Origin: Escherichia coli
GTDB lineage: Bacteria > Pseudomonadota > Gammaproteobacteria > Enterobacterales > Enterobacteriaceae
NCBI RefSeq assembly: GCF_003334255.1
Contig: NZ_QOWU01000273.1
DNA length: 287 nucleotides
Strand: one strand, 5' to 3'
Under the pieces are notes generated by a model. It saw only the letters and a program-made list of their open reading frames with translations. It had not been told where the DNA came from and did no database searches. Below are positions 1 to 287 of this stretch, piece after piece. Each line of letters begins with the position of its first letter. Within the stretch, counting starts at the first letter, position 1. A program made the position numbers and the translations under genes.

Positions 1-248
1 CGGTTTTTGTGTTGCGTGCTGATGTGGTTAGAATGTTGCGAATTAATATCACCTGGCAACTGGTGATTGTCTGCATAGTCAACGGTGAAGGAGAAAGCCC
101 CGTATGTGGTGACGCTGCGGGCAGCCTGTTTACAGGCGCGGCGGTAATAGTCGTGCCAGTTGTTCAGGCGGGAAGCCAGCAGGGGATCCACCGCCCACAT
201 CCAGTTAAAGAAGTCCTGAATATCTGAAAGTCCCTTAACGCTCTTCAT
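1..248 (-). CDS. Hypothetical protein, N-terminal 82 codons (3' end outside the window). Translation: MKSVKGLSDIQDFFNWMWAVDPLLASRLNNWHDYYRRACKQAARSVTTYGAFSFTVDYADNHQLPGDINSQHSNHISTQHKN...
   Basis: Seen in sequence: reverse complement of 246..248 is ATG, followed by 81 further sense codons with no stop through position 3 (positions 1-2 are the first two bases of the next codon). GGAGG sits 5 nt upstream of the ATG. Codon choice is enterobacterial-like (CTG x3, CGC x4, AAC, GAC, TTC, ACC, and only one AGA/AGG/ATA/CTA-class rare codon), and by my hand count about 53 of 82 codons end in G or C against roughly 50% overall GC. The ORF was absent from the supplied track, presumably because it has no stop inside the window. 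Product unknown: no recognisable Walker, HTH, CxxC pair, signal peptide or transmembrane segment. The true start could lie upstream, since the frame stays open to position 287. Confidence 0.75.
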   Translation of the reverse strand, partial: MKSVKGLSDIQDFFNWMWAVDPLLASRLNNWHDYYRRACKQAARSVTTYGAFSFTVDYADNHQLPGDINSQHSNHISTQHKN

Positions 249-253
249 GAGAA

Positions 254-258
254 CCTCC
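254..258 (-). promoter_or_regulatory. Shine-Dalgarno / ribosome-binding site (GGAGG) for the minus-strand CDS
   Basis: Seen in sequence: plus-strand cctcc at 254..258 reads GGAGG on the minus strand; the context is CCGGAGGTTCTCATG, with a 5-nt spacer (TTCTC) to the ATG at complement 246..248. This is a perfect core match to the anti-SD complement at acceptable, slightly short spacing. Caveat: if the ORF continues in-frame from upstream, this is just codons CCG-GAG-GTT. Confidence 0.5.
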
Positions 259-287
259 GGTAACAGACGTGCGGAAGCCTCCCGCGC

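Follow-up and report, generated by a model that had tools for sequence, protein, structure and literature searches.

The closest described counterparts of the locus studied here are the RNA-based immunity systems of bacteriophages P4, P1 and P7. The P4 immunity region runs PLE - seqA - cI RNA - seqC - epsilon - orf151 - orf106 - alpha. Its seqA and CI RNA are the elements otherwise named IsrK and C4, and CI, which arises by processing of an untranslated leader, pairs with seqA and seqC and so prevents the replication genes from being expressed (PMC3632133, PMC4825925, PMC10111431). The immI region of P1 and P7 consists of the c4 antisense RNA followed by icd and ant. The heteroimmunity of these two phages was reportedly traced by Citron & Schuster, in 1990, to matched substitutions in loops and targets. 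The isolated Escherichia phage P88 (Xuanwuvirus) has a single-copy locus made up of isrK, C4, gp14, gp15 and a replication endonuclease gene (gp14-gp15-gp16).

We analysed a 287-nt stretch of Escherichia coli DNA, referred to here as the window, together with related loci. The minus strand of the window holds an open reading frame (ORF) with 82 residues inside the window (MKSVKGLSDIQDFFNWMWAVDPLLASRLNNWHDYYRRACKQAARSVTTYGAFSFTVDYADNHQLPGDINSQHSNHISTQHKN). We conclude, with a probability of about 0.9, that this ORF is a chimera, in which a tandem duplication has joined the start of a gene to non-coding DNA into which its frame runs on by accident. The best match to the window, in strain SCU-172 (286/287 nt identical), lies in two tandem copies of an 829-bp unit that differ from each other at six positions. 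The joint between the copies has no microhomology: after ...FTVD the sequence continues directly with base 1 of the following unit. The truncated gene stands 829 bp upstream of an intact gene for a 138-aa protein, and 56 of its 57 codons are identical to those of the intact copy, the fragment carrying D51A in most carriers. The same GGAGG sequence precedes both. In SCU-172 the chimeric ORF, which is 280 codons long, and the intact 138-aa gene stand side by side, and the window copy continues into a second RNA cassette rather than into the replication endonuclease gene. In single-copy genomes, both halves of the window are present, 829 bp apart. The features of the window and of the surrounding SCU-172 locus (L001) are listed in Table 1.

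Table 1. Features of the window and of the corresponding SCU-172 locus (L001).
Feature	Window positions	Window strand	L001 positions	Basis or remark
Whole window	1-287		12620-12906 (window minus strand)	one mismatch
ORF, ATG at 248-246	3-248	-		frame leaves window at position 3
Upstream edge of conserved RNA-immunity cassette, ACACAAAAACCG	1-12	-		alignment A4
Read-through, codons 58-82, first 75 nt of repeat copy 2 ("polar tail")	3-77	-		repeat comparison
Antisense ORF, 64-aa hypothetical protein WP_162861635.1 (RefSeq)	33-227	+	12680-12874 (-)	spans joint
Perfect 6-bp inverted repeat ATCACC-N8-GGTGAT	48-53 / 62-67	.		repeat search
Novel duplication joint GAC/TAT (minus strand)	77-78	.		register comparison in L001; repeat spacing 829
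phrog_3237 gene 5' end, 171 nt, codons 1-57, truncated	78-248	-		phrog_3237 profile
Last 39 nt of spacer, copy-1 epsilon-like "derepression" gene to ATG	249-287	-		alignment to L001
Shine-Dalgarno GGAGG	254-258	-		5 nt upstream of ATG, read directly
Upstream early operon			9409-11547	
phrog_6315 gene			11521-11985 (-)	154 aa
Open frame across isrK, C4 and epsilon-like gene			11548-12672	ends 13 nt after ATG of 138-aa gene; equivalents in L002-L032
Repeat copy 1, 829 bp			12001-12829	repeat search, register comparison p vs p+829
Copy-1 equivalent of window 1-77			12001-12077	16 nt upstream of divergent phrog_6315 gene start
Copy-1 cassette			12110-12385	
End of copy-1 epsilon-like gene			12590	
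Repeat copy 2, 829 bp			12830-13658	repeat search, register comparison p vs p+829
Promoter-like TTGCCA-18-TACATT			12908-12937	-35 TTGCCA begins 2 nt beyond window
Copy-2 cassette			12939-13214	
Start of copy-2 isrK match			12944	38 nt past window end
GGAGG preceding intact 138-aa gene			13478-13490	
Intact 138-aa gene			13488-13904	overlaps start of replication endonuclease gene

The composition of the ORF changes where the two parts meet. Codons 1-57 have a GC content of 55.6% and a GC3 of 71.9%, against 41.3% and 48% for codons 58-82. A preliminary description of the window had noted such a shift, placed it at residue 61 and suggested a linker, a disordered region or a domain boundary. The shift is real in both GC and GC3, but the break falls slightly further upstream, between residues 57 and 58 (window 77/78), and is explained by the duplication joint rather than by a domain boundary: homology to the gene family stops at residue 57, and what follows is the second copy of the repeat.

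What lies beyond the joint? The repeat unit holds, in order, an isrK match, a terminator-like hairpin, a second promoter-like site, a C4 antisense RNA match and a gene for a 73-aa protein. The RNA matches are to Rfam families RF01695 and RF01394, the C4/CI antisense-RNA immunity cassette of P4, P1 and P7. They stand just outside the window, in the expected order and on one strand, and score above the gathering thresholds in both repeat copies (65.9 and 64.3 bits for isrK, gathering 50; 82.8 bits for C4, gathering 45). The 73-aa gene, also outside the window, encodes a protein that matches Pfam PF25738 (Derepression; E 1.8e-6, residues 10-65) and P4 epsilon (BLASTP E 8e-8, 32% identity over 50 aa). 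Loops a' and b' of C4 have complements both in the isrK part (a1/b1) and downstream (a2/b2); b2 overlaps the ribosome-binding site (AAGAGG) of the epsilon-like gene.

We scored these pairings in 25 distinct cassettes (alignment A3), taken from E. coli genomes, IMG/VR and P88, with 16 pairs for each of the two target sets. The proportions of paired cells were 98.3% and 97.5%, and 11 and 10 pairs, respectively, were changed on both sides. Covariation was 0.655 and 0.686, against 0.136 and 0.135 for shuffles and at most 0.24 for slid controls; none of 500 shuffles reached the observed score. At least 6 a-types and at least 11 b-types co-vary among closely related P88-like prophages. Such strong covariation between loops and targets indicates that the region into which the chimeric ORF reads evolves as an RNA regulatory element, not as a protein. 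The substitutions fall almost wholly within the loops and their targets, making this a very clean natural series of RNA-RNA covariation. Promoter-like and terminator-like sites are seen in the cassette, and by analogy with P4 and P1 we infer that here, too, C4 RNA would be processed from a leader and would confer immunity through termination and a translational block.

In 29 of 32 cassette copies, a single frame stays open through isrK, C4 and the epsilon-like gene for at least 197 codons; the figure is at least 208 in all of those except the G1/2 deletion copy described below. We rejected this frame as a real gene: it is closed in three relatives (L010, L020 and L029) and remains open in L017 despite +1/-1 indels, and so is not conserved as a protein, and the covariation across it is of the RNA type. 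It is probably a compositional by-product of GC-rich RNA structures. The P4 reference record still has a 137-aa "cI gene product" CDS drawn over the CI RNA.

It is unlikely, although the best of the alternatives, that the chimeric ORF has been co-opted for a function. This could happen in two ways: (i) ribosomes that start at the fragment's ATG could melt the isrK terminator, C4 and target structures of copy 2 in cis, such that read-through transcripts from copy 1 escape attenuation in copy 2, or (ii) the 57-residue N-terminal hairpin could compete with the intact 138-aa protein. Retention of the Shine-Dalgarno sequence and ATG is consistent with co-option, as is the fact that the fusion happens to fall in the frame that is open across nearly all cassettes. 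However, that frame is equally open in single-copy phages, where no start codon feeds it. In addition, the fragment's D51A is found in most carriers, and the ORF of G1/2 has only 122 codons. The shortening in G1/2 is due to a 79-bp deletion, 13 nt after the joint (L005 3843-3850 vs L003 3843-3921), that takes away the spacer of copy 2 together with the -35 region of its isrK-leader promoter and wholly changes the tail. G1/2 is otherwise nearly identical to G6/7. The deletion suggests ongoing decay or remodelling of the duplication in G1/2.

The gene at the start of the chimera belongs to a family catalogued as phrog_3237. In a scan of PHROG profiles, residues 7-57 of the window ORF matched profile positions 1-53 of 129 (E 4.3e-18), and the intact downstream gene matched positions 1-129 (E 7.4e-52). 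The window copy is, by this profile comparison, a fragment of a phrog_3237 member and not itself a member. The family is very small, with 17 representatives at 50% clustering among 1.8 billion proteins. Intact members are 127-145 aa long, apart from one that has an N-terminal extension and is 171 aa long. In an alignment of 10 members with identities down to 23% (alignment A2), F13, W18, P22 and D57 are invariant and W16 is present in at least 90%. F13, W16, W18 and P22 belong to a conserved N-terminal motif, DFxxWxW..DP, and all four are present in the window ORF. The aromatic N-terminal segment singled out in the preliminary description (F13, F14, W16, W18, W31, Y34 and Y35) is thus more than a chance feature, and these residues, the basic stretch RRACKQAAR (36-44) and the histidines H72, H75 and H80 are all where it had placed them.

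An AlphaFold model of the 138-aa protein (pLDDT 80) has helices at residues 10-20 and 22-44, four strands between 52 and 87, and two C-terminal helices between 90 and 133. The window fragment encodes the predicted helical hairpin and the first beta-strand (E52-56), and lacks the other three strands and both C-terminal helices. With a single strand left before the joint, the fragment would probably not fold alone. We infer that it has no function of its own, since most strands and the C-terminal helices of the predicted fold are missing.

The functional context of the intact protein comes from gene position. Both the intact copy and the divergent members lie directly upstream of, or overlap, a Phage_GPA replication endonuclease gene, and in the divergent members this holds with or without an RNA cassette. 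This position suggests that the 138-aa protein may be a gpA-associated replication accessory. Searches with the 138-aa sequence returned no Pfam family even at E <= 10, nothing in NCBIfam and nothing in 50,697 phage records by tblastn at E <= 1e-5, and a PDB sequence search gave noise only (E >= 0.44). P88 gp15 (121 aa) is a highly diverged homologue, with 22% identity and a pairwise E of 4e-7, whose kinship was detected only by direct pairwise comparison. P2 Orf83 (DUF5405, 91 aa) occupies the same position, directly upstream of and overlapping gene A. It resembles the C-terminal half of the 138-aa family weakly (hhalign probability 46.8%, E 2e-4, 50 columns), and a Foldseek search of BFVD also found DUF5405 proteins (E 8.9e-3, target-normalised TM 0.64), with the similarity outside the part encoded in the window. 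The DUF5405 Pfam profile does not match the 138-aa protein, and Orf83 lacks the Trp-rich N-terminal helical hairpin, the sole part of the family encoded in the window. P4 ORF151, considered as another possible counterpart, is unrelated (hhalign probability 0.2%).

Could the ORF nonetheless encode a genuine small protein over its full length, with an N-terminal module of aromatic residues, then a basic patch, and at the C-terminus either a polar or disordered region or a second domain? The ORF is uninterrupted and has a Shine-Dalgarno sequence and an ATG, and a public protein collection records the 280-aa product, via one gene caller (P0006). We consider this reading very unlikely. Beyond residue 57, intact family members have beta-strands and two helices in place of a polar tail. 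The continuation of the ORF overlaps Rfam-verified RNA genes with RNA-type covariation, and RefSeq does not annotate the chimeric ORF in any carrier locus inspected. The DNA of the tail is an intergenic spacer in single-copy relatives and varies between phages; it cannot be aligned between related phages save for its last ~12 nt (alignment A4), and it is rewritten by the deletion in G1/2. The polar tail, rich in His, Asn, Gln and Ser, is therefore non-coding spacer read in this frame. The window ORF has no match in NCBIfam or Pfam. The label "unrecognised protein" of the preliminary description is apt only in so far as the family is without known function: the family is catalogued, and the window contains a truncated, additional copy.

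The spacer stands just upstream of the promoter-like site of the isrK-like leader. It also contains the inverted repeat listed in Table 1, which is confined to phages with this spacer and is a putative operator or small hairpin. On the other side of the spacer in copy 1 is the phrog_6315 gene, which encodes a membrane protein with hydrophobic segments and, being transcribed leftward, breaks the rightward early operon just before the RNA cassette. It is absent from this position in P88, and hence behaves like a moron. Pipelines differ on its start (154 vs 215 aa). We considered whether the tail is coding on the opposite strand, as the N-terminus of the phrog_6315 gene in its 215-aa version, and rejected this because the profile of the family begins only with the Met of the 154-aa form. 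The antisense ORF WP_162861635.1 is annotated across the joint in SCU-172, G6/7 and STEC2018-607. Its N-terminus copies the non-family N-terminal extension of the adjoining gene's ORF, and the remainder is antisense to the phrog_3237 fragment; it is most likely spurious.

Among 5,426 complete E. coli genomes, megablast found parts of the window in 65, and in each case the match was chromosomal. In SCU-172, the window lies within a P2-like prophage adjoining dmsABC. This prophage has an early operon as well as genes for an integrase, an HTH repressor, a replication endonuclease of the gpA type, and the portal, terminase and capsid. The suggestion that the locus is accessory and possibly part of a prophage is borne out by this distribution and by the flanking genes that we inspected. 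The upstream early operon encodes a 3'-5' exonuclease, a ParE-like toxin-like protein, a Dam-type methylase and a DUF4406 protein, and the same gene set is found in distant relatives (L036-L038). Megablast of the window against 50,697 phage records gave no match, and a plasmid collection gave two partial matches, both to very large E. coli records (1.0 and 1.2 Mb).

The joint itself is rare. A 100-nt probe across it was intact in four of the 5,426 complete genomes, namely SCU-172 (USA), G6/7 and G8 (Germany) and STEC2018-607 (Switzerland), and was partly present in G1/2; the remaining matching genomes hold the halves of the window separately. An identical 28-nt joint sequence occurs once in IMG/VR, once in OAUP01000013.1, a 188-kb contig from a metagenome collection, and also in GCA_903972775.1. 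All carriers have a single breakpoint in common. The two copies differ from each other, depending on the carrier, by 0 (over 446 comparable nt), 6, 18, 43 or 64 nt, and differences of up to 64 nt make the copies resolvable in assembly. The joint is thus a real, heritable structure, since one breakpoint recurs across independent assemblies and the copies differ. That it is an assembly or collapse artefact, absent from cells, is extremely improbable: tandem repeats of ~0.8 kb are a classic source of misassembly and one IMG/VR contig ends inside the repeat, but complete genomes produced by three unrelated studies have the same breakpoint, as have another three assemblies, and the copies of most carriers differ by 6-64 substitutions, including C4 specificities, that collapse or expansion would not create.

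How did the chimera arise? In a P88-like E. coli prophage (Xuanwuvirus, P2 family), a tandem duplication created the gene remnant. The duplicated unit runs from the intergenic spacer through the P4/P1-type RNA immunity cassette and the 73-aa P4-epsilon-like gene to codon 57 of the next gene, with the cassette consisting of a promoter, an isrK/seqA-like leader that includes a1/b1 and a terminator, the C4/CI antisense RNA with a'/b', and a2/b2. The duplication left the intact 138-aa gene beside gene A and, 829 bp upstream, a 5' fragment that has its own Shine-Dalgarno sequence and ATG and reads into copy 2. On the analogy of P4 and P1, C4 RNA would pair with a1/b1 and a2/b2, block translation of the epsilon-like antirepressor, and terminate transcription before the 138-aa gene and gene A. 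As for P4 CI and P1/P7 c4, this shut-off would act both in the prophage itself and on superinfecting phages of the same specificity.

What is the functional significance of the duplication? If any part of it was selected, we suggest that it was the extra immunity cassette. Speculatively, that cassette could add to the dosage of C4 or provide a second immunity specificity, with the gpA-proximal copy alone gating replication of the prophage. The carriers differ in this respect. G6/7, G8, G1/2 and STEC2018-607 are heterotypic: the first three have specificities TTTCCAC/CAAACGAAG then TTCGCAG/CTAGCAAAG, and STEC2018-607 has TTGGAAC/CTAGCAAAG then TTCGCAG/CAAACGTAG. The copies are homotypic in GCA_903972775.1 and, over the part held, in OAUP01, and those of SCU-172 are near-identical apart from a mismatched b1 site in copy 1. 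Whereas a2/b2 match their own C4 in every cassette (7/7 and 8-9/9 positions), a1/b1 mismatch their own C4 in three of six carrier phages against none of 19 single-copy cassettes, although the carrier lineages are not independent. The mismatched cassettes are copy 1 of SCU-172, copy 2 of the IMG/VR contig and both copies of GCA_903972775.1 (L001 12152-12158; L013 219-494; L034 2451-2727 and 3280-3556). These carrier-only mismatches could reflect cross-wiring between the copies or relaxed constraint.

A tentative and rather doubtful extension of these observations is that the duplication itself was selected, such that the prophage carries two RNA-immunity cassettes to which recombination then gave differing C4 specificities. 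If this is true, a lysogen would shut down the antirepressor and replication operon in superinfecting relatives belonging to two immunity classes, the gpA-proximal copy alone would control the prophage's own replication, and the window ORF would be a scar of the event. The duplication may instead be neutral: it is rare, and G1/2 has already lost the leader promoter of copy 2. The chimeric ORF is best regarded as a by-product. It may be translated, and translation may have some effect: this is possible because the fragment keeps a good Shine-Dalgarno sequence and ATG and the frame is kept open for 280 codons in four carriers.

The chimeric ORF itself is ordinary. For annotation, it carries a lesson: ORFs that span a duplication joint should not be reported as new proteins, and the 280-aa entry and the RefSeq "hypothetical protein" are examples. 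A break in composition within an ORF can be the breakpoint of a rearrangement instead of the border between domains. As to phage biology, P88-like relatives of P2 have a P4-type isrK/C4/epsilon cassette directly upstream of the replication gene, with many co-varying specificity types; in a few lineages the cassette is present twice, in some cases with a different specificity in each copy. If the second cassette widened superinfection immunity, this would be a simple, testable case in which duplication of a cassette broadened RNA-based immunity. None of this bears on any long-standing open question.

Like P4, the locus has a match to the Rfam family of isrK/seqA and then one to that of C4/CI, next an epsilon-type gene homologous to that of P4, and then replication genes, and its targets flank the antisense RNA upstream and downstream, as do seqA and seqC of P4 (PMC4825925). 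It differs from P4 in that the host of the cassette is a complete P2-like phage of the helper type and not a satellite, in place of the alpha primase the replication gene encodes a gpA rolling-circle endonuclease, and the cassette is tandemly duplicated in a few lineages. Compared with immI of P1 and P7, the a' and b' loops likewise pair with a1/b1 upstream and a2/b2 downstream, b2 lies over the ribosome-binding site of the first downstream gene, and matched substitutions in loops and targets alter specificity. In contrast to immI, the downstream genes are not icd and ant, and there are at least 6 a-types and 11 b-types as against the two classical types. P88 has the locus in single copy, with a gp14 derepression protein that is 82% identical to the 73-aa protein, but unlike the carriers it lacks the duplication and so lacks the chimeric ORF. 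What is new here is that a P2-like phage carries a P4-type RNA immunity cassette twice, the copies being heterotypic in some carriers; this is a modest variant of a known system.
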